The notes: generated by a model from the sequence alone, not told the origin. 64,000 nucleotides of DNA from an uncultured Gammaproteobacteria bacterium (GCA_964439885.1 CAYTPE010000001.1:9031-73030); one strand, 5' to 3'; positions 31,055-59,612 are shown, counted from the stretch's first letter. Translations and numbers: made by a program.

Positions 31055-32089
31055 ATGATTACTCTCAAAAACTATTTTAAAGAAGCTATTAAACAAGACG
31101 CGTCCGACCTGCATTTGGTAGGTGATGAAAAGCCACTCATCAGAATTGAGGGCGAACTCAAAGAGCTTGAAGATAAACCACTGGCGAACAAAGAGCTTGA
31201 AACAGCTTTGTTTGGCTTGATTGATAAAGACCAGCAAGCTCGCTATGAAGAAGAAAAAGAGCTTGATTTTGGCTATGAACTCGACGGCGTTCGCTTTCGC
31301 GTGAATCTGCACCAAGAAAGCGGCCGCATTGGCATGGCAGCGCGCCTGATTCCGGCCGAGATCCCGGCTTCCACCGACTTGCATTTTGAACCACAGTTAC
31401 TGGAGTTGCCAAAATTGCTCGATGGCCTCATTCTCGTCACCGGCCCCACTGGCAACGGTAAATCCACCACCATCGCGAGCATGATCGAAGAAATAAATAA
31501 AACACGCAAAGCGCACATTGTAACCGTGGAAGATCCAATCGAATTTGTTTTCAAAGATAAAATGAGCCTGGTGGAGCAGCGTGAAGTAGGCACCGACACG
31601 AAATCGTTTGCCACCGCGCTCAAATACGTGCTCCGCCAGGATCCAAACGTCATCTTCGTTGGCGAAATGCGCGACCCCGAAACCATCGCCACGGTGCTCA
31701 CTGCCGCCGAAACTGGTCACCTCGTATTTTCTACACTCCACACCAGTAGTGCCGCTGAAGCAATTGAGCGTATCGTGGATGTATTTGAAGGTAGCAAGCA
31801 GAAACAAGTACTGATTCAGCTTTCGGCAGTGCTACGCGCCGTGATTTCGCAGCAGCTCGTACCGGCCAAAGACGGTGGTCGCGTACCAGCTCGTGAGATA
31901 CTCATGAATACTCCAGCCGTTGCCAATTTGATTCGTGAGAACAATATCGCGCAAATTAAATCCACCATTCAAACAAGTAGCAAAGACGGTATGATCAGTT
32001 TGGAAAATTCACTCAAGCAGCTGGTAAAAGAAGGGTGGATTACCGAAGAGGTGGCAGAGAATAGGATGGGGACGCGGAAGAAGATTTAG
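31055..32089 (+). CDS. pilT: type IV pilus retraction (twitching motility) ATPase PilT
   Basis: 344 aa. ASDLHLVGDEKPLIRIEGEL, Walker A GPTGNGKSTT, VGEMRDPETIA, and the His-box/Asp-box region of PilT/PilU ATPases. Confidence 0.85.
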   Translation: MITLKNYFKEAIKQDASDLHLVGDEKPLIRIEGELKELEDKPLANKELETALFGLIDKDQQARYEEEKELDFGYELDGVRFRVNLHQESGRIGMAARLIPAEIPASTDLHFEPQLLELPKLLDGLILVTGPTGNGKSTTIASMIEEINKTRKAHIVTVEDPIEFVFKDKMSLVEQREVGTDTKSFATALKYVLRQDPNVIFVGEMRDPETIATVLTAAETGHLVFSTLHTSSAAEAIERIVDVFEGSKQKQVLIQLSAVLRAVISQQLVPAKDGGRVPAREILMNTPAVANLIRENNIAQIKSTIQTSSKDGMISLENSLKQLVKEGWITEEVAENRMGTRKKI

Positions 32090-46257: not shown

Positions 46258-49200
46258 ATGCATTTGGGAAGTGCTCGTACAATAGCTGCACAATTAGGCC
46301 GCATTACCGGCTATTTTTTGCTTTTTGTACTTGCTTTAGGGGGCCTTTTTGTTGATCCGTTTGTATCGACAGCTGCCACTGGTGTACCTAAAATTTTCAC
46401 CTATCAGGGTCGTTTGCTTGATGGGGCGGGGAATTTGCTTGGTGGCAATGGTACCAACTATTGTTTCCGTTTCTCGCTGTACGACAACGCCACCGTCGGG
46501 CAGGGCGCAAAGGTATGGCCGGCAGGAGTTCCGTCTACCATGACGCTACAAGTTAAGAGCGGTGTTTTCAACGGCGCAATCGGCGATCTTGCTGCGGGAG
46601 GGGATTTGCTTGATTATAATTTTCAGGATTCCGATGAGGTGTACTTGAACGTAGAAGTAGCAGCCCAGGTGGGTGGCTCATGCGCGGGTGTGGCATTCGA
46701 AACACTGGCTCCACGTCAGCGTGTGACTGCTAGCGGTTATGCCATCAACGCGAACACAGATGGCGGATTTACCACATCGCAGATTGCAACAGGCAGCCAG
46801 ATTCCCGTGCACACCAATGGTGCTATCGTGCTTGGTGGTGCCACTGCCGGGCTCAGTGCTACCAACGCAAACCCGCTTCTTTTGCAGGGGAGTGGTAGTG
46901 GTGACATTCAATTTTTTTCTGCACTGAATAAACTTTCTTCTGCCGGTAATTTAACATTGGCCGGATCACTCACTGCCAACGGCGCACTTCTCATCAACAA
47001 TGACGCGACTATTACTGGCACAACGACGTTGGCAACAACGAGTATTTCCAAAGCAACAATTGCGAATGCTACGGTGAATAATTTAACTGTAACGGGGGTG
47101 TGTTTTGGTTGTGGTGGGGGGGGGGCGGCAGGTGGGGTGAACACATCAACGGCAGGATACATGGCGTATTATCTGAATGGCACAAGCGTAACGGGCACAA
47201 GCATGGTGACCTTTGCTGGTAACACATTTACGGTTTCAGGTTTGTCTGTATTTACTGCTACCGCAACTTTTGCCACAACAAGCATTACGAACGCCGCTAT
47301 TGGCTCTGCTTCAGTAGGAAATTTGGTAGCTACAAACAGTACATCGACAAATAGCTTTGCTGAGGGGCTTGCTTATACCAATTTGTCTGGTGTCAATGCT
47401 ACTTCGACAAATTTGTTTGCGTCACAATTTAATTTTGTGAATGCAAATGGAACGAGTCTGACTTCTACGAATGCATTTTTTTCTAATTTAGCTGTAGGTA
47501 ATTTCAGTCCGACGAATTTGTCGACTTCTAACATTACCACTACCAATTTTGTCGCGACGGGCGCGGTGAGTCTGCCAGTTAACTCGGTGACCGACGCGAT
47601 GGTTTCGAACTCTTTGACTATTGACAACACGGGAAATATTTCCGCTACCGCTATCAATTCGGGAACACTTGGTAACAATGCTGTCACGTTGGCTCTCGGA
47701 TCTTTTGGCTCGATCACTGGAGCGCTTGGAGATGCCAACGTAGCGGACAATCTTACCATCAACGGTGGCACTATTAACAACACAACGATTGGCGCGTCGA
47801 GCCCCTCCACGGGTGTGTTTACGAACGCGACAGCTACCAATTTTGTTGCCTCGAATGTTACCACTACTAATTTGGCAGTGACGGGAGCACTAAGTGTGAC
47901 CTCACTCAACCCCACGAATTTGGCTTGGGTAAACGCCACGGGAACGAACAGTATTCTGAACAATGTAACAAGTACGAATTTGTCCGTCTCTGGCTTAACC
48001 ACTCTCGCCAACACCACCTTGACCAACGCCACCTCCACCAACTTCAACACCGTTGGCCTCACCTTCACCAACGCCACGGGCACCAACAGTGTCTTCACGA
48101 ACGCTACCAGTACCAACCTCTTTAGCACTGGCCTTGCCTTCACCAACTTAAACGGTACGAATGCCACCTCCACCAACTTCTTTGCCACCAACCTCGCGAG
48201 CCTTGGCCTGACCAGCACCTACGGCAACCTCTCCTTTATCACCGCCACCGGTGTCACCTCCACCAACGCGAGCTTTACGAACCTCAGTGCTGCCACCTTC
48301 AACCCCACCAATCTCACCTGGACCAACGCCACGGGGACCAACAGCGTCCTGACCAATGTGACCAGCACCAACCTCGCCGTCAGTGGCCTGGTTGCCTTAA
48401 CAGGGAACACCACCTTGACCAACGCCACCTCCACCAACCTCTTCTCAACCGGCCTCGCCTTCACCAACCTCTCTGGTACCAACGGAACAAGTACCAATTT
48501 CTTTGCCACGAACCTCGCGAGCCTTGGCATTACGTCCACGTATGGCACCATTACCTTCTTAACAACCAGCGGCATCACCTCAACCAACGCGAGCTTGACC
48601 AACGTTACCTCCACCAACCTGTCCGTCTCTGGCTTAACCACTCTCGCCAACACCACCTTGACCAACGCCACCTCCACCAACTTCAACACCGTTGGCCTCA
48701 CCTTCACCAACGCCACGGGCACCAACAGTGTCTTCACGAACGCTACCAGTACCAACCTCTTTAGCACTGGCCTTGCCTTCACCAACTTAAACGGTACGAA
48801 TGCCACCTCCACCAACTTCTTTGCCACCAACCTCGCGAGCCTTGGCCTGACCAGCACCTACGGCAACCTCTCCTTTATCACCGCCACCGGTGTCACCTCC
48901 ACCAACGCGAGCTTTACGAACCTCAGTGCTGCCACCTTCAACCCCACCAATCTCACCTGGACCAACGCCACGGGGACCAACAGCGTCCTGACCAATGTGA
49001 CCAGCACCAACCTCGCCGTCAGTGGCCTGGTTGCCTTAACAGGGAACACCACCTTGACCAACGCCACCTCCACCAACCTCTTCTCAACCGGTTTGGCATT
49101 TACTAATCTCAATGGTACCAATGGAACCAGCACCAACTTCTTTGCCACCAACCTCAGCAGTCTTGGCAGTACTTCCACCTACGGTAACATCTCCTTCATC

Positions 49201-52200
49201 ACGGCTAGTGGCATCACATCGACTAATGGTAATTTCACTAATTTAACAGCTTCGAACTTCATTCCAACCAATCTCACCTGGGTGAGTGCCACCGGTACCA
49301 ACACCGTTCTAACCAACGCCACATCAACCAACTTAAATACGGTTGGGTTAACCTTTACGAATGCCACGGGGACCAACGCTGTCTTGACCAACGCCACGTC
49401 AACCAACCTCTTCTCAACAGGTCTGGCATTTACTAACTTGAACGGCACGAACGCAACGAGCACCAACTTTTTTGCCACCAACCTAAGTAGTCTCGGGCTC
49501 ACCACTACGTATGAGAAAAGTACATTCCTTGTAGCGACAAATGCTACTTCAACTAATTCTTTTGTCACTAATCTATCAAGTCTAGGCATAACATCCACAT
49601 ACGCAAATCTTGGTTTCTTGGTAGGTACTAATATTACTTCAACAAATCAATACAGCAACGGTCTCACCTTTAATATCGCCACAGGTACCTCTATCACTAC
49701 TACAAATGCATATATCGCAAGTTTGGTCGTCGGCACATGTACGGGTTGTGGTGGCGGTGCGGCAAGCGGTGGTGTAAATACTTCGACAGCTGGAAATTTT
49801 GCTTATTATCAGGGTGCCAGCTCAGTCACCGGTACATCTGCCCTTACCTTGTCTGGTACGAATATTACTGCGAATGGCGCAGTAGCCTTAACTGCTACTA
49901 CCACCGCCACCAATCGTTTTATTAACACCATATCAAGCGGCTCAAATATATCAGTGGTCGGCAGCGTTGCTCTTGCCAACTCAGGTTCTAAACCATACAA
50001 CCTAGTACTTCGAGGACGGTATGCCTATGTAACAAATTTCGCTAGTTCTACCATATCTGTGGTTGATTTAAGCAATCCGGCAGCACCAACTGTAATTAAT
50101 ACAATTAGCGTTGGAATTAACGTCGGGCCAACAGGCATCGATAATGATAGTAGATATTTGTATGTTGCCGCGTCGTCTACGCCAAGCCTTTATATTTACG
50201 ATCTTTCAACTGCAGCAGCCCCGTCTCAAGTTGGTCAGTCGCTTTTGTCTTTTTCACCAACAGATATAGGAGTAGATGGTCATTTTGTCCTACTTCCGTC
50301 TCCGAGCTTTGGTCAGGTCCAAATTCGTGATATTAAATATCCAAATAATGTATCATCTGTTCCTGGCTTGGGTGGTGTTACTGGTGGAACCCGCATTACT
50401 ATCTTTGGTAAATATGCCTACTACTCGGGCTCTTCCAATCTGTATATTGCTGACGCCTCCAACCCTGCCTCAATGGTTGTTAATGGTAGTATTGCTATGC
50501 CTAATCAGGTTAATGGCGTGTATGTTGTAGACCGATACGCGTACGTATTAAATGGAGGCTCGTTAAACGTAGTTGATATTAGTACGCCCAGCGCTCCAGT
50601 AAATGTTGCGACCACTTCAATCGGCGGCACTCTCTGGGGAGTGGCTGGTACTGGCCGCTATCTCTACATTACAGATAAAGCCAACAGCTCCGTTGATGTC
50701 GTAGACGTGGCAAGCTCTACCAACCCAGTCTTAGTAAAAACCATTACAGGCTTTGCTTCACCGCAAGGCATCGCCGTTAACGGAAGATACGCCTACGTTG
50801 TAGATAATGGTGATGGTACTCTCTATGTAATTGATTTACAGGGAACGGAAGTGAGCTCTCTGGTGGCATATTCTGCCGATGTCGGTTCACAACAAATTAG
50901 AAATGATCTCTACATTGGCAACAAAGCTTTTGTGCTTGGAGGGTTGACTGTTGGTAGTTTGGGCATCGCGTCAGCCGGAGATCTTGTGGTCCAAGGCACC
51001 GGCAATTCTACACTAGCCGGCGCTTTGGTTGTTTCGTCATCCATTTCAGCAAGTGCTTTTTCTGTGTCTGATAATTCATTTTATACAAGTGTAGGAACAA
51101 CCTATATAACAAATCTAAACGCTACTAGCATTACCTCCACCAACCTCTTTTCTACCGGTCTCACCTTTACTAACGCTACAGGTACCAAGGCCATTTTCAC
51201 GAGCGCCACCTCGACGAATTTGTATACAACAAACGGCGTGTTTACTAATGCCACTACTACCAACCTGTATTCAAACGGGTTGGTCTTCTCACGCGCCACA
51301 AGTACGGCATTAACTTCCACCATCGCATACATCGGCAGCCTGACAGTCGGCAGCTGTTCAGGTTGTGGCGGCGGAGTCTCTTTGAGCGGCAATAATACAT
51401 GGAGCGGGCTAAATATATTTACCAATACTACCACATTAGCCACCACCACCATTTCAGGTATATTTGATGGTGATGCTAAATTCGTCCCAGCTAGCCCGAA
51501 TGGGAATGGTTTCCAAGTAATGAATTTAGAAAACGATGAGACGCTTTTCAGCGTCGGCCCTTCAGCAGGGAATGCTGATTTTGTGGCGATAGGGGATAGA
51601 AGTGCCGCGCTTACGACCACTACACTCTTATATGTTGATACCAAATCTGATGCTGGCGACCCCACGCCTCCACTGAGTGCGGACGGTGCTATCTATTATA
51701 ATTCGAATAGCAAAAAATTCCGGTGTTACGAAAATTCGTCATGGAAAAATTGTGATAGCGCTGCTAATGCTCAAACATTTACCGCCACAAGTACCTGGAA
51801 CAAGCCAAACGGTGTTACATATGTTACCGTGCGTTGTATTGGCGGTGGCGGTGGCGGTGGCGGCGGAAGTTCGAAGGCGGCTGGTGGTGCACGAGCTGGG
51901 GGCAGTGGCGGTGGCGGTGGCTCTGTGCTCATCAGAACATTTTTAGCTTCTGACGTAACATCTAGTATTGGTATTACTGTTGGCCAGCCAGGTGGGGCTG
52001 GCGCCGGCGGCGTAAACGGAGCCAACGGCACCAGCGGCAGCGCTGGTACTGCATCCAGTTTTGGCACGTATGTCACCTGTTATGGTGGTGGCGGCGGTTT
52101 TGGGGGCACAACTGCAGTGAATTCAGGTGGTACAGGTGGTGGTCACGGTGGTGCTGGTAATAGTGGCAGTGGTTCAGCTTCCACTGGCGGCTTGCCGGCT

Positions 52201-52704
52201 ACTGCCAGCAACGCAGTTGGTTTGTCGGGACAGGGTTCTGGTAGCAGCGCGGGTACGGCTTCTGGCCAACCATCCGAATGGGGTGGTGCTGCTGGTGGCG
52301 GATCTTCAATCACAGTAGCTAGTCAAAATGGCGGTACCTCGCTCTGGGGTTGTGGTGGCGGTGGCGCAGGTGGAAATATTACTACTGGTAACGTGGCCAA
52401 TGCACCAGGCGCTGGTGGTAACACCGGTGTTTGGGTTACGGCTGGCGGCGGCGGTGGAGCGGCTGGTTCAAGCGGTGCGGCTGGTACTAACGGCACCGAC
52501 GGAACGGGAGGAACCTCCTTGTTGTGCGGTAAAGGCGGCGGCGGTGGTGGATCTTCCACAAACGGTGCTAACAATGGCGGTACCGGTGGTAACGGTGGCG
52601 CTCCTGGCGGCGGCGGTGGTGGTGGTGGAGCCGGTACTACTACTGTTAATGGAGGTACTGGTGGCAGAGGAGGGGCAGGTGAGGTCGATGTATGGGCCTG
52701 GTAA
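46258..52704 (+). CDS. giant (2148 aa) secreted/cell-surface repeat protein: signal-anchor, Thr/Asn/Ser-rich ~106-aa tandem repeats, YVTN-type beta-propeller repeats, Gly-rich C-terminal domain
   Basis: N-terminal hydrophobic segment [15 protein letters not shown]. Low-complexity repeats of the form [46 protein letters not shown].... [29 protein letters not shown]... repeats (YVTN/LVIVD-like) follow. The final ~300 aa are about 45% Gly ([18 protein letters not shown]...[25 protein letters not shown]). Confidence 0.8.
47981..49258 (+). repeat. near-identical 639-bp (213-aa) tandem duplication inside the giant gene, itself composed of ~106-aa sub-repeats
   Basis: TGTCCGTCTCTGGCTTAACCACTCTCGCCAACACCACC... 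occurs at 47981 and again at 48620. Hundreds of following nucleotides are identical between the copies. Confidence 0.8.
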
Positions 52705-53872: not shown

Positions 53873-54307
53873 ATGAAATTCATACGTCAGCATGTGTTGG
53901 TTTTTGTTGTCGGAGCGATACTTTGTGTCGGTGGGGGATTTGTCGTGTATCAAAAAAAATGGGCGCCATTTGATTTTACCTCTCTTGTTCAAAAGCAGTT
54001 AACCGATGATGATAAACAGCGAATCGTACAAGTGGTAAGCCGGGTGGTGGAGCTCCCACGAAATGAAATTCCCGAGATAAATTTTGTCACCAAACTCGAT
54101 CGTCTCAAAACCCAAAGTTTTTTTGCTCAAGCCCAAACAGGCGATGTGGTGCTTATCTATCGCCAAGCCAAAAAAGCCTTTTTGTATCGATCCACTACCC
54201 ATCGACTTGTCAATCAGGCAACAGTTGTTCTGGTGTCTCAACCACCCGATGATACACTACTGCCCGATGGTGCTATCCCAGGGTTTGCGTTGCCCGGCAT
54301 GCACTAG
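53873..54307 (+). CDS. small N-terminally membrane-anchored protein (paralog pair member 1)
   Basis: 144 aa: transmembrane anchor, then ...ELPRNEIPEINFVTKLDRLKTQSFFAQAQTGDVVLIYRQAKKAFLY. Paralogous to the next gene. Confidence 0.5.
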   Translation: MKFIRQHVLVFVVGAILCVGGGFVVYQKKWAPFDFTSLVQKQLTDDDKQRIVQVVSRVVELPRNEIPEINFVTKLDRLKTQSFFAQAQTGDVVLIYRQAKKAFLYRSTTHRLVNQATVVLVSQPPDDTLLPDGAIPGFALPGMH

Positions 54308-54388
54308 CTCATTGTGGACAACCACTTTACTCGATTACAAAAATCATTTATACTGTAAGCATATTAACTATTAAATTTTACTTTCCGT

Positions 54389-54820
54389 ATGGAAACACGA
54401 GAAAAAATTATCATAGCGGTATTGGCAGCATTGGTGCTTGTTTTAGGTGGTACCACTTTTTATTACTCCAAAAAATTCGTTCAAGCCAAAGAAAATCCGC
54501 AGCAGTATGTGCAGCAAACAGTTGACTCGCTCGTCAAACAGGTTGGTCAGCTTATGGAGCTCCCGGCAGGTGAAGTTCCAACCGTTGCTACTGTTGTTGA
54601 TCCGGAAAAATTAAAAGGCCAACCATTTTTTGCTCATGCATCAGTAGGGGACAAAGTGCTCATTTACGGCAATGCTCGTAAAGTTGTCTTGTATAACCCA
54701 AACACAAACAAGATCGTCGAAGTTGCACCGCTCAGTATCGGCAATCCAACCGGCACGAACCAGCCAGCTCCTACGCCAACTCCAACTCAGCCTACTGAAA
54801 CTGACACTAACAAACAATAG
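54389..54820 (+). CDS. small N-terminally membrane-anchored protein (paralog pair member 2)
   Basis: 143 aa: ...ELPAGEVPTVATVVDPEKLKGQPFFAHASVGDKVLIYGNARKVVLY. Shares the ELP..E.P....V.....LK.Q.FFA.A..GD.VLIY..A.K..LY pattern with 53873-54307. Confidence 0.5.
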   Translation: METREKIIIAVLAALVLVLGGTTFYYSKKFVQAKENPQQYVQQTVDSLVKQVGQLMELPAGEVPTVATVVDPEKLKGQPFFAHASVGDKVLIYGNARKVVLYNPNTNKIVEVAPLSIGNPTGTNQPAPTPTPTQPTETDTNKQ

Positions 54821-54843: not shown

Positions 54844-56145
54844 ATGCGCCTGGCTATTCTCAGCGTATGCCTGCTCGGCTGCATACTCACTCTGAGCGCG
54901 GTCGCGCGAGCTGAAACATTTTCTTCTCCGAGTTACACTTCTGCCGACCCGGTAGTGACTCTTCATGGTGGCTACGCGGCTTCACCGAGCTTTCAATTAT
55001 TTGGAAGTTCTGGCCCCATCGTCATCGGCGAAAGTACCAGTACGAACTTTGTGTATCGTACTGGTTTTCTTTATTTTCCCTTAGTAACCGCGCCGATCGC
55101 TGTGGCCACCCCCGGTAACGCTTCCGTAAATCTCACCTGGACAGCTGCCACAGCGGCACTCGGCTACACCATTAGTGGTTATGATGTCGGCGTGTCTGCG
55201 GCGGACGGAGGTCCGTACTCTTATTCAAATGTGGGAGACGTGCTGGCGCACACCGTGCAAGGGTTGCCCAACAACAGCGTTCGATATTTTGTGGTTAGAG
55301 CGAATGATTTTTATGGCAATCCTATTGCCACGTCATCGCAAGTTTCCGCTACACCTGTTGGCGGAAATAATAATCAAAATAATGCTGGAGGTGGTGGTGG
55401 GGGTGGGGGTGGGGGAGGCGCTGTCGCTACTACCATTCAGGCATCCGGCATTACGTTCCCCAGTGCTTTGGTGTATCTCGTGAAGGATGGTGTGATCATT
55501 GCTACTGCCGAGAGCACCGCGCAGGGCACCTTTTCTATCGGCCAGTCCGTGAGTCCAGGCACAGCGGTTTTTACCATCTATGCCGCTGATAAAAATGGCA
55601 ATCGTACCGGTTCCGTATCGTATACTACTGATGTCCAGTTCGGATCTACGACAAAGATAGAAAATATTGTGTTACCGCCTCTTGTTACAACCGATAAAGA
55701 GTCCGTCAAACCGGGCGATATCATTACCATCACCGGCAGAGGCGCGCCGAACTCGAATTCCGTTATCACCATTGATGAAATACCTGGTTTGCAGTTCAAA
55801 GTCACCCTCGATTCGAGTGGTACATTCTCCACTCCCTTCAAAGTGGCGGATCTCGGCAACGGTGCCTACAGCGTGCGCGCTCGGCTGGAGCGCAATGGGA
55901 CAGTGACGGGTCTCAGTCAACTGATACAATTTATTGTTGGCAATAAAACAGTTGATCGAACCGAACAACAGCAATGTTCAGAGGCAGATTTTAATTGTGA
56001 CGGTAAAGTTAATTTGATTGATTTTTCCATTTTGTTGTTCTGGTTTGAAAAAAAGAATCCACCGGATGCCATCGATCTGAATCATGACGGCAAAGTGGAT
56101 ATTATTGATTTTAGTATTCTTATGTACTATTGGACGGGTGGATAA
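54844..56145 (+). CDS. secreted protein with fibronectin type III-like domain, poly-Gly linker and C-terminal dockerin-type (type I) calcium-binding repeats
   Basis: Signal peptide MRLAILSVCLLGCILTLSAVARA. Fn3-like APIAVATPGNASVNLTWTAA..GYTISGYDV. Two dockerin-like repeats DFNCDGKVNLIDFSILLFWF and DLNHDGKVDIIDFSILMYYW. Confidence 0.65.
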   Translation: MRLAILSVCLLGCILTLSAVARAETFSSPSYTSADPVVTLHGGYAASPSFQLFGSSGPIVIGESTSTNFVYRTGFLYFPLVTAPIAVATPGNASVNLTWTAATAALGYTISGYDVGVSAADGGPYSYSNVGDVLAHTVQGLPNNSVRYFVVRANDFYGNPIATSSQVSATPVGGNNNQNNAGGGGGGGGGGGAVATTIQASGITFPSALVYLVKDGVIIATAESTAQGTFSIGQSVSPGTAVFTIYAADKNGNRTGSVSYTTDVQFGSTTKIENIVLPPLVTTDKESVKPGDIITITGRGAPNSNSVITIDEIPGLQFKVTLDSSGTFSTPFKVADLGNGAYSVRARLERNGTVTGLSQLIQFIVGNKTVDRTEQQQCSEADFNCDGKVNLIDFSILLFWFEKKNPPDAIDLNHDGKVDIIDFSILMYYWTGG

Positions 56146-56146
56146 T

Positions 56147-57112
56147 ATGCTTAAACATATATTTCGTACTTTGCTTTTCGCTGCATTCGCAGTAGCTGTC
56201 GCCATTCCTGCCGCAGCCGCGAGCGATCCGTCAATAGTGATGGTTTTTAGTCCTGCCACGGTGGCCGCATCACGCCCAGAAGGGGCTACACTTGATGTGG
56301 CTGTGAATACTGGGGCGGCCACCATCAATGCGCTCGAAGGCGAACTGGTGTATCCAGCCAAAGAGCTCGCTGTTGATCAGGTGCTCGATGGTGATTCGGT
56401 CGTTTCGCTCTGGGTAGAGCGACCCACGGTGGATGAGGCACATGGTACGATACGATTCAAAGGTTTGTCAGCCGGTGGTATAAGCACCGGTCATGGTCGC
56501 TTGTTTAAAATAACCTTTCACACGGTACAAACCTCAATCGACGGTGCGTCGCGGTCAATTGTGCAAGCTCGGAATGTGCGTGGATTTTTGAGCGATGGGC
56601 GAGGTACGCCGGTGCCGGTTATTGGTGGAAGCAGTGAATTGGCCGTGGTACCAAGTGCCAGTGAATTAATTCCAACAAGCACAGCAACTTCTTCAACGCA
56701 ACCAATCGATACGACTGCTCCTGACCCTTTTAAACCAGCCATTTCTCGGTATCCGTCACTCTACAACAATCAATGGTTTGTGGTGTTTGCTTCACGTGAT
56801 GGGGGAGGGGGGATAGATCGATACGAAGTTCAGGAAACAAAAAGTGCCACACCCAATCCTGAGCGTTGGATTGAAGTGGCGAGCCCGTATGTATTAAACG
56901 ATCAATCATTAGGTAGTTATGTGCACATACGGGCGCTCGACAAATCAGGTAATGAGAGAATTGAAACGATATCGCCTGCATCAGGTGCGCGTAATTCATA
57001 TACGAAACTCTTTTTTTGGTGTATACTACTAATCGTAGTACTTTTCGGTGGTTTTGTGGTATGGAAAAAACAGTCGCGACAAACCGACACACCACCCCAG
57101 ACACGCAGCTAA
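56147..57112 (+). CDS. membrane-anchored protein with cohesin-like N-terminal domain
   Basis: Start taken at ATG 56147 (MLKHIFRTLLFAAFAVAVAIPAAAA signal peptide). MVFSPATVAASRPEGATLDVAVNTGAATINALEGELVYPAKELAVDQ...FKITFHTVQ resembles cohesin domains. C-terminal transmembrane helix LFFWCILLIVVLFGGFVVW. Confidence 0.5.
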   Translation: MLKHIFRTLLFAAFAVAVAIPAAAASDPSIVMVFSPATVAASRPEGATLDVAVNTGAATINALEGELVYPAKELAVDQVLDGDSVVSLWVERPTVDEAHGTIRFKGLSAGGISTGHGRLFKITFHTVQTSIDGASRSIVQARNVRGFLSDGRGTPVPVIGGSSELAVVPSASELIPTSTATSSTQPIDTTAPDPFKPAISRYPSLYNNQWFVVFASRDGGGGIDRYEVQETKSATPNPERWIEVASPYVLNDQSLGSYVHIRALDKSGNERIETISPASGARNSYTKLFFWCILLIVVLFGGFVVWKKQSRQTDTPPQTRS

Positions 57113-59145
57113 ATGGGGGAGTGGTACGCAGATTTTTCTTCAGCGCAATAGTAGCCGCTGCTCTTTTTTTCGCTTTCCCTTTTTCCGCGCATGCCGCTTC
57201 TCTCACTTTTAGTCCGTCAAGTGGTACGTTCACCGTGGGGAGTACTTTTTCCATCACCGTACTACTCAACACTGAAGACGAAACAGCTAATACCATTCGC
57301 GCGCAAATCTCATATCCAGCGGATAAATTACAACTGGTTTCTCCTTCCACGGGCAATTCAGTCATTAGTATTTGGACAAGCTTGCCCAAAGTAGACAATC
57401 AACGAGGTATCGTCGATCTGCAAGGTGGCATTCCCGGCGGCATTAAGTCCACCGGTGCGGCTATTACAACTTTGGTTTTTCGAGTTAATTCTGTAGGAAA
57501 TGCCGTGGTTCGTTTTACCGATCAATCAAAAGTATTGTTGAATAATGGTCTCGGCACCGAAGCGCTACGCCAAGTAACTAACGGCGTCTACAATTTGGTT
57601 CTTCCGCCACCAGCGGGGCCCATTGTGAGCTCAGAAACACATCCCGATCAGACCAACTGGTATAATATCTCTACGGTCGTGCTCCGTTGGGCACCAGAAC
57701 AAAATGTTGATGGCTATAGTTACATGCTCAGTGAGAACCCGGGAGATGTGCCCGATGATATTTCCGAAGGCATCAACCAAAGCGTCACGTACAAAAATGT
57801 TCCCGATGGTATTCATTACTTCCACATCAAATCACTTAAAGACAAAGCTTGGGGTGGAGTCACGCATTTCGCCCTTAAAATAGATACCGCTGCCCCGGCG
57901 GCTTTTCCGGTTGATATTATCCCTGATGCGCGTACCAGTCGTCGTGAACCAATCGTGCAATTTTCTACCACCGATGGTCTATCGAGTGTGAGCCATTACG
58001 AACTGAAGCTTATTCCACTTTCACCGAGCGCCGATGGCGGCTTTAATGCGCAACCACTCTTTATCGAAGTCACAAGCCCGTACGTGTTTTCGGAATTACC
58101 AATTGGTAATTACGACGTGATCGTTCGAGCGTACGATTTTGCCGGCAATTATCAAGAAATTACGGAGCGCATGAGTATTGTCAATCCGGTCTTTACAGTC
58201 GTGCGAGGTGAAGGTGTTAAAATCGGATCCGCACTCACCATTCCATGGTATGTGTTCTGGATACTCATGGCCACGGGCATTCTTGCAATCGGGCTCATAT
58301 TTTGGCGCATTCGCAGTTGGCGCCATCGTATCATCGCGCAGCGTGCCAATCGAGAATTACCCCAAAAGCTCCAGCAGGATCTTGATGAACTGAAACGCTT
58401 TCGAGCGCGCTATGGTAAGCTTGCGGCGTGTTTGCTCATCATCGCGTTTGTAGCGCTGGCTCGGCCAGCTCGCGCCGATGTCGTCCAAGTGACGCCGCCG
58501 ATCGTGGACACCATTTCTCGTAACATCACAAACGAAGATATTTTTTATATCGGTGGAAAAACCGACACGGGCGGTAGTTCGGTTATCATTTATTTGCAAA
58601 ATCTTTCCACCGGAGAAACACTCACCGAAGTCGTGCCCGTCGATAATCGCGGCAACTGGTTCTATCGCCACGGTTCGTTTCTTTCGAGTGGTGAATATTT
58701 GCTCTGGACGCAAAATAAAATTGGTAACGAAATCAGTCCGCCGAGCCCGCAAGAAAAACTGAAAGTCAGTACTTCTGTTGTACACCTCGGCACGTCACGC
58801 ATCAGCGTCGAAACGATCAATGGCGCGGTGGCCGCTGTCGCGCTCCTTGGTTTCCTGATTTTATTGTTCTACACACTATACCATGCGCGCCATGTGCATC
58901 GTGAGCGCAAGGCGCTCCTTACCGAAATTCGCACCGCCGAGGAGTCCGTACGTCGCGGATTTGCCGTCATTCGCCGTGATATTCAAGCAGAGCTGGAGCT
59001 TGTACACAAAGTAAAACTCGAGAAAAATTTGTCCGATGATGAGCGCACGCGCGAGGAACAGCTCCTCAAAGATTTGGAAGCGATCGAGCAAAATATTGGC
59101 AAGGAAATTTGGGAGATCGACCACTTAGAGGCCCAATTACGTTAA
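57061..59145 (+). CDS. large multi-domain membrane protein with cohesin-like N-terminal domain, Fn3-like domain, three transmembrane segments and C-terminal coiled coil
   Basis: Start ambiguous: ATG 57061 overlaps the upstream gene by 52 nt; an in-frame GTG at 57121 would give MVRRFFFSAIVAAALFFAFPFSAHA as a signal peptide. LTFSPSSGTFTVGSTFSITVLLNTEDETANTIRAQISYPADKLQLVSP is paralogous to the previous gene's cohesin-like domain. Confidence 0.55.
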   Translation: MEKTVATNRHTTPDTQLNGGVVRRFFFSAIVAAALFFAFPFSAHAASLTFSPSSGTFTVGSTFSITVLLNTEDETANTIRAQISYPADKLQLVSPSTGNSVISIWTSLPKVDNQRGIVDLQGGIPGGIKSTGAAITTLVFRVNSVGNAVVRFTDQSKVLLNNGLGTEALRQVTNGVYNLVLPPPAGPIVSSETHPDQTNWYNISTVVLRWAPEQNVDGYSYMLSENPGDVPDDISEGINQSVTYKNVPDGIHYFHIKSLKDKAWGGVTHFALKIDTAAPAAFPVDIIPDARTSRREPIVQFSTTDGLSSVSHYELKLIPLSPSADGGFNAQPLFIEVTSPYVFSELPIGNYDVIVRAYDFAGNYQEITERMSIVNPVFTVVRGEGVKIGSALTIPWYVFWILMATGILAIGLIFWRIRSWRHRIIAQRANRELPQKLQQDLDELKRFRARYGKLAACLLIIAFVALARPARADVVQVTPPIVDTISRNITNEDIFYIGGKTDTGGSSVIIYLQNLSTGETLTEVVPVDNRGNWFYRHGSFLSSGEYLLWTQNKIGNEISPPSPQEKLKVSTSVVHLGTSRISVETINGAVAAVALLGFLILLFYTLYHARHVHRERKALLTEIRTAEESVRRGFAVIRRDIQAELELVHKVKLEKNLSDDERTREEQLLKDLEAIEQNIGKEIWEIDHLEAQLR

Positions 59146-59587: not shown

Positions 59588-59612
59588 AAAAAGAGCGCTC
59601 GCGCGCTCTTTT
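59588..59612. terminator. bidirectional rho-independent terminator between convergent genes
   Basis: AAAAAGAGCGCTCGCGCGCTCTTTT. Confidence 0.6.

Follow-up and report, generated by a model that had tools for sequence, protein, structure and literature searches.

In the cellulosome of Clostridium (Acetivibrio) thermocellum, the cohesin-bearing proteins OlpA, OlpC and SdbA are surface anchoring scaffoldins whose partners are type I or type II dockerins. Non-cellulosomal cohesin-dockerin pairs reportedly exist as well, and examples include the cohesin-Fn3 portion of Clostridium perfringens GH84C, with its dockerin-bearing toxins or glycosidases, and the Archaeoglobus fulgidus cohesin 2xdh. Here we describe three consecutive genes in a 64-kb stretch of DNA (the window, meaning the whole stretch that was analysed) and will refer to their products as Doc, CohA and CohB. 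On balance we think it fairly likely that this segment is a dedicated non-cellulosomal cohesin-dockerin docking module, kept as an operon in Patescibacteria, with binding and role read from the sequences. The C. thermocellum scaffoldins attach to the wall through SLH domains, and their load consists of enzymes or of scaffoldins laden with enzymes, whereas CohA and CohB possess transmembrane helices and their predicted cargo is a non-enzymatic stalk protein. They also differ in that CohB has a conserved, predicted cytoplasmic coiled coil and in that the module's host is a Patescibacterium with a small genome, in which no cellulolytic genes are in view. We found no published description of the Doc-CohA-CohB trio in the literature.

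Doc (54844..56145, plus strand) is a 433-aa secreted stalk protein composed of a signal peptide, an N-terminal head of about 60 aa, an Fn3 domain, a Gly/Asn-rich linker, two Ig-like domains and a C-terminal dockerin, an architecture whose conservation is visible in the family alignment. The PDB structures matched by the Doc family profile are Fn3, Bap-type Ig and dockerin structures, and the only Pfam domains on Doc homologues are PF00404, PF17936, PF00041 and PF19077. The head (residues 24-85; 54913..55098, plus strand) is conserved across the family with the consensus SSxNF..PV..GGYSTS..F.L.G..GQ..G.SSS..F..N.GFLYFP and had no Pfam or PDB match in profile searches. Of the 77 dockerin ORFs among the loci retrieved, 47 match an HMM of the head, whose sole match elsewhere in these loci is a non-dockerin ORF in L069; minimal Doc orthologues are reduced to signal peptide, head, linker and dockerin.

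Judged by its sequence, the tail of Doc (residues 380-433; 55981..56142, plus strand) is a bona fide type I dockerin for which calcium-dependent folding is predicted. It has the characteristic layout: two segments of some 22 residues at the extreme C terminus, in each of which a helix follows the loop D-x-N-x-D-G-x-[VI]-[ND]-x-x-D. The two F-hand segments are DFNCDGKVNLIDFSILLFWFE and DLNHDGKVDIIDFSILMYYWT, and the calcium loops run into their helices as DFNCDGKVNLID...FSILLFWF and DLNHDGKVDIID...FSILMYYW. The first-pass annotation had proposed that this Fn3 protein ends in two dockerin-type calcium-binding repeats, with EF-hand-like repeats as the alternative. Pfam Dockerin_1 (PF00404) matches Doc at 34.5 bits (E 2.3e-8; gathering cut-off 22.9 bits) while every EF-hand Pfam model stays below threshold (E of at least 0.05), and the family profile matches the solved dockerins 2y3n_B (7e-6) and 1daq, 2mte, 5nrm_B and 4fl4_A (3-4e-4), all of which favours the dockerin assignment. 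Among 72 non-identical orthologous dockerin tails drawn from 73 loci, the dockerin and its calcium ligands are kept at the extreme C terminus, with counts in the first and second segments of 69 and 68 for D1, 63 and 51 for N3, 66 and 57 for D5, 65 and 65 for N/D9 and 70 and 71 for D12.

CohA (321 aa; 56147..57112, plus strand) starts at the ATG at 56147 rather than at 56084 and consists of a signal peptide, a cohesin at about residues 30-167 (nt 56234-56647), an Ig-like domain at about residues 190-276 and a single C-terminal transmembrane helix at residues 283-310 (nt 56993-57076). CohB (57121..59145, plus strand) comprises 674 aa when read from the GTG at 57121; the NCBI model uses an alternative ATG at 57061. 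Its cohesin (residues 25-162, nt 57193-57606) follows a signal peptide and is succeeded by two Ig/Fn3 domains (residues 163-370), a transmembrane hairpin (residues 371-455, segments 371-397 and 429-455) whose second arm resembles a signal peptide ending in ARA|D, a Big_13 Ig domain (residues 456-556) and a third transmembrane helix (residues 561-590). The remaining 84 residues (591-674, nt 58891-59142) are helical in the AlphaFold2 model and form a conserved, predicted cytoplasmic coiled coil with the motif AEES-RRGFA-[IL]RRDI-AEL.

The claims made at first pass for these two genes, namely a cohesin-like beta domain of about 140 aa after each signal peptide, mutual paralogy and membrane anchoring, were all borne out. 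CohA and CohB align by BLASTP with E 1e-10, and a second shared domain with E 2e-8, while their family profiles align with a probability of 100% and E 1.8e-47 (hhalign). The PDB matches of the CohA family profile are cohesins only (5aoz, 3.3e-4; 5m2o, 9.4e-4). In a Foldseek search of the PDB with the AlphaFold2 model of CohA (pLDDT 86.8), nearly all matches are cohesins (TM scores 0.65-0.76); the matches ranked 2 to 15 are cohesins without exception (0.64-0.76), and the top match is 2w1n, a cohesin-Fn3 tandem. Both 2vo8 and 2xdh rank among the top matches of the CohA and CohB models alike. Against Pfam PF00963 the cohesin of CohB reaches 21.4 bits (cut-off 24.1) and that of CohA gives no match, but 28 of 47 CohB homologues match this family at E <= 0.01 (best 6.6e-8), and many homologues carry a precomputed PF00963 match together with the NCBI name 'cohesin domain-containing protein'. 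A generic Ig or Big domain was considered for the N termini and rejected, since the PDB matches of the CohA profile, and nearly all Foldseek matches of the CohA model, are cohesins. Taken together, the models indicate that the extracellular N-terminal domains of CohA and CohB are true cohesin folds, nine-stranded beta-sandwich jelly-rolls, raised on Ig-like spacers.

The trio is not a local curiosity but an operon recurring in many ultra-small CPR/Patescibacteria. In 83 loci fetched around CohB relatives, with ORFs called by HMM, Doc, CohA and CohB occur in this order in 67; three further loci have Doc followed by a CohA::CohB fusion and two have Doc and CohB without CohA. The 11 loci that lack a dockerin gene lie on truncated contigs with less than 1.9 kb upstream. 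A tblastn search agrees with this synteny, and the genes abut or overlap, most intergenic distances being about -60 to +20 bp. Fusion proteins (P0044, P0027 and P0062) retain a hairpin made of the transmembrane helix of CohA and the signal peptide of CohB; conversely, CohB is split into a gene pair of 466 and 262 aa in L086, and P0347, P0389 and P0339 are CohB forms without the hairpin. The core module is also found in records labelled Gottesmanbacteria and Peribacteraceae. The database E-values, together with the same arrangement in dozens of divergent genomes, exclude a chance origin of these features.

The first-pass annotation had extended the assembly to the wider neighbourhood, and here the outcome was mixed. 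Its giant ORF, small anchored paralogues and pilT all exist, but for the first two synteny in relatives is partial. The paralogues, tandem proteins of 144 and 143 aa with N-terminal membrane anchors (53873..54820, plus strand; genes at 53873-54307 and 54389-54820), share 37% identity (E 2e-16) and are likely accessory components; their relatives occur in 23 loci, the window included, and there precede the dockerin gene by a median of 15 bp. The giant 2148-aa repeat protein (46258..52704, plus strand), secreted or anchored and matching LVIVD repeats at 57 bits, heads the module's same-strand gene string, and no dockerin was found in it. In 23 loci the module is preceded by large surface-protein genes; the N-terminal domain of the giant protein lies upstream in L001 and a few others, and L087 has in its place a gene that encodes 1531 aa or more, a candidate counterpart by position. 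The association with the module is thus only partial. The pilT gene, a T2SSE/PilT-type ATPase ORF (31055-32089; PF00437, E 3.5e-44), is unsupported as part of a surface assembly, lying 23 kb from the module behind the housekeeping genes for DnaG, RpoD and MurG; with translin downstream, the context of the module is a housekeeping one. A GC-rich, terminator-like hairpin followed by a T-rich tail (59589..59612, plus strand) is likely the 3' end of the transcription unit, a reading that draws on a consensus scan whose terminator-like hits are in excess, though not proof.

The module has two cohesins for one dockerin, and covariation across 66 Doc/CohA/CohB triads suggests that the cognate partner is CohA. 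Pairwise dockerin distances correlate with those of the CohA cohesin with r 0.51 (partial r 0.48 after removal of the CohB C-terminal and middle regions, a value reached in 0 of 500 permutations), with those of the CohB cohesin with r 0.36 (partial 0.29) and with those of control regions with r 0.17-0.23, although a common history or common rates can also produce such mirror-tree correlation. The dockerin tails also form two classes, which a two-way split of the CohA cohesins matches in 64 of the 66 triads; no CohB region shows a matching split in these triads, and it is this difference that indicates CohA. Distances between classes are 1.16 times those within classes in the dockerin, 1.09 times in the CohA cohesin and 1.02-1.03 times in CohB regions, and a single ancient event could lie behind the class split. 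Covariation at the level of segments is weak.

Cohesin and dockerin domains could by themselves be taken to mean a small cellulosome or another polysaccharide-degrading enzyme complex, but nothing else speaks for such a complex, which is hardly credible and already contradicted. There is no glycoside hydrolase in the 64-kb window, and neither the three proteins nor the products of neighbouring genes contain a glycoside hydrolase, CBM or any other enzyme domain. The sole dockerin of the window is borne by a non-enzymatic Fn3/Ig protein, not a CAZyme, and Doc orthologues bear only Fn3, Ig or small head domains. No SLH or CBM match was obtained, cohesins occur one per protein, and the anchors are transmembrane helices, not SLH domains or sortase. 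The genes as read here are those of a non-cellulosomal cohesin-dockerin system, as had been proposed.

Two further readings accept the domain assignments. CohA and CohB might be a general display scaffold that anchors several dockerin proteins encoded elsewhere, with Doc as one cargo or adaptor. There are additional dockerin ORFs close to the module, two in L070 and others in L077 and L085, so the scaffold may serve more than one cargo; loci have at least two cohesin proteins, and L088 and L085 have three; and conservation is far stronger in the CohB cohesin (mean pairwise distance 0.42) than in the adjacent dockerin (0.57), as if this cohesin served another conserved ligand. We nonetheless consider a general scaffold unlikely, given that the window holds a single dockerin, that one-to-one adjacency of Doc and CohA is nearly universal and that dockerin class tracks CohA class. 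Alternatively, the cohesins might be stalk or oligomerisation domains and the dockerin a calcium-stabilised module that binds a wall polymer, some other target or nothing, the genes being co-expressed without any cohesin-dockerin bond. This would suit the sub-threshold Pfam scores of the window's own cohesins, and a precedent is offered by eukaryotic adhesion molecules of the TMEM132 type (PMC6030884), which combine a cohesin fold, Ig domains and a transmembrane helix and are not known to have a dockerin partner. CohA shares that layout of extracellular cohesin fold, Ig spacers and single transmembrane helix, a likeness of architecture. Yet both partner domains are kept adjacent in dozens of lineages with strongly conserved calcium ligands, covariation of the dockerin is stronger with the cohesin domains than with other parts of CohB, and the nearest structural matches are cohesins crystallised with dockerins; a purely structural role therefore seems very unlikely.

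We thus return to the docking module, in which the trio probably mounts a protein of the cell surface on the membrane. The strictness of the synteny, the gene fusions and the covariation of dockerin and CohA strongly suggest that Doc is tethered to the envelope. Doc is a non-enzymatic stalk protein exported via Sec, and after export its calcium-loaded dockerin would dock non-covalently onto the CohA cohesin and possibly onto that of CohB too, the near-symmetric dockerin halves permitting a dual binding mode or a bridging of both cohesins. CohA and CohB would make up one membrane complex whose Ig spacers raise the docking site through the wall and thereby display the conserved Doc head at the surface, while the conserved cytoplasmic helix of CohB would link the complex to something intracellular. 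Candidate roles of the head are adhesion or envelope architecture; attachment to a host or substrate, as first suggested, is speculation. Tentatively, and as an improbable extension, the three proteins might form a core, possibly essential trans-envelope complex in which docking is coupled, physically or by signalling, via the three transmembrane segments of CohB to its cytoplasmic coiled coil.

In a cultivated Saccharibacterium, Southlakia epibionticum, the dockerin-domain envelope protein SEML1_0315 is essential by Tn-seq (Wang et al. 2023, PMC10633639). By its description it is like Doc a dockerin-bearing, Ig/Fn3-rich envelope protein of a Patescibacterium, but it is 927 aa long and is encoded by a solitary gene flanked by a hydrolase gene and a tRNA gene, and no cohesin genes are listed next to it (PMC10633639). 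If the trans-envelope reading were true, the complex could anchor a surface layer or surface fibres, or could instead report host-cell contact, and it would be the first cohesin-dockerin system to act as an integral membrane machine, not as extracellular glue. Like the C. perfringens and A. fulgidus systems, whose structures 2w1n, 2vo8 and 2xdh are among the top Foldseek matches, the module places cohesin and dockerin outside cellulose degradation. Those systems, however, are soluble secreted enzymes linked together, or orphan modules, whereas Doc, CohA and CohB constitute a membrane-integrated three-gene operon that extends across many lineages, with fusion and fission variants and a predicted cytoplasmic domain.

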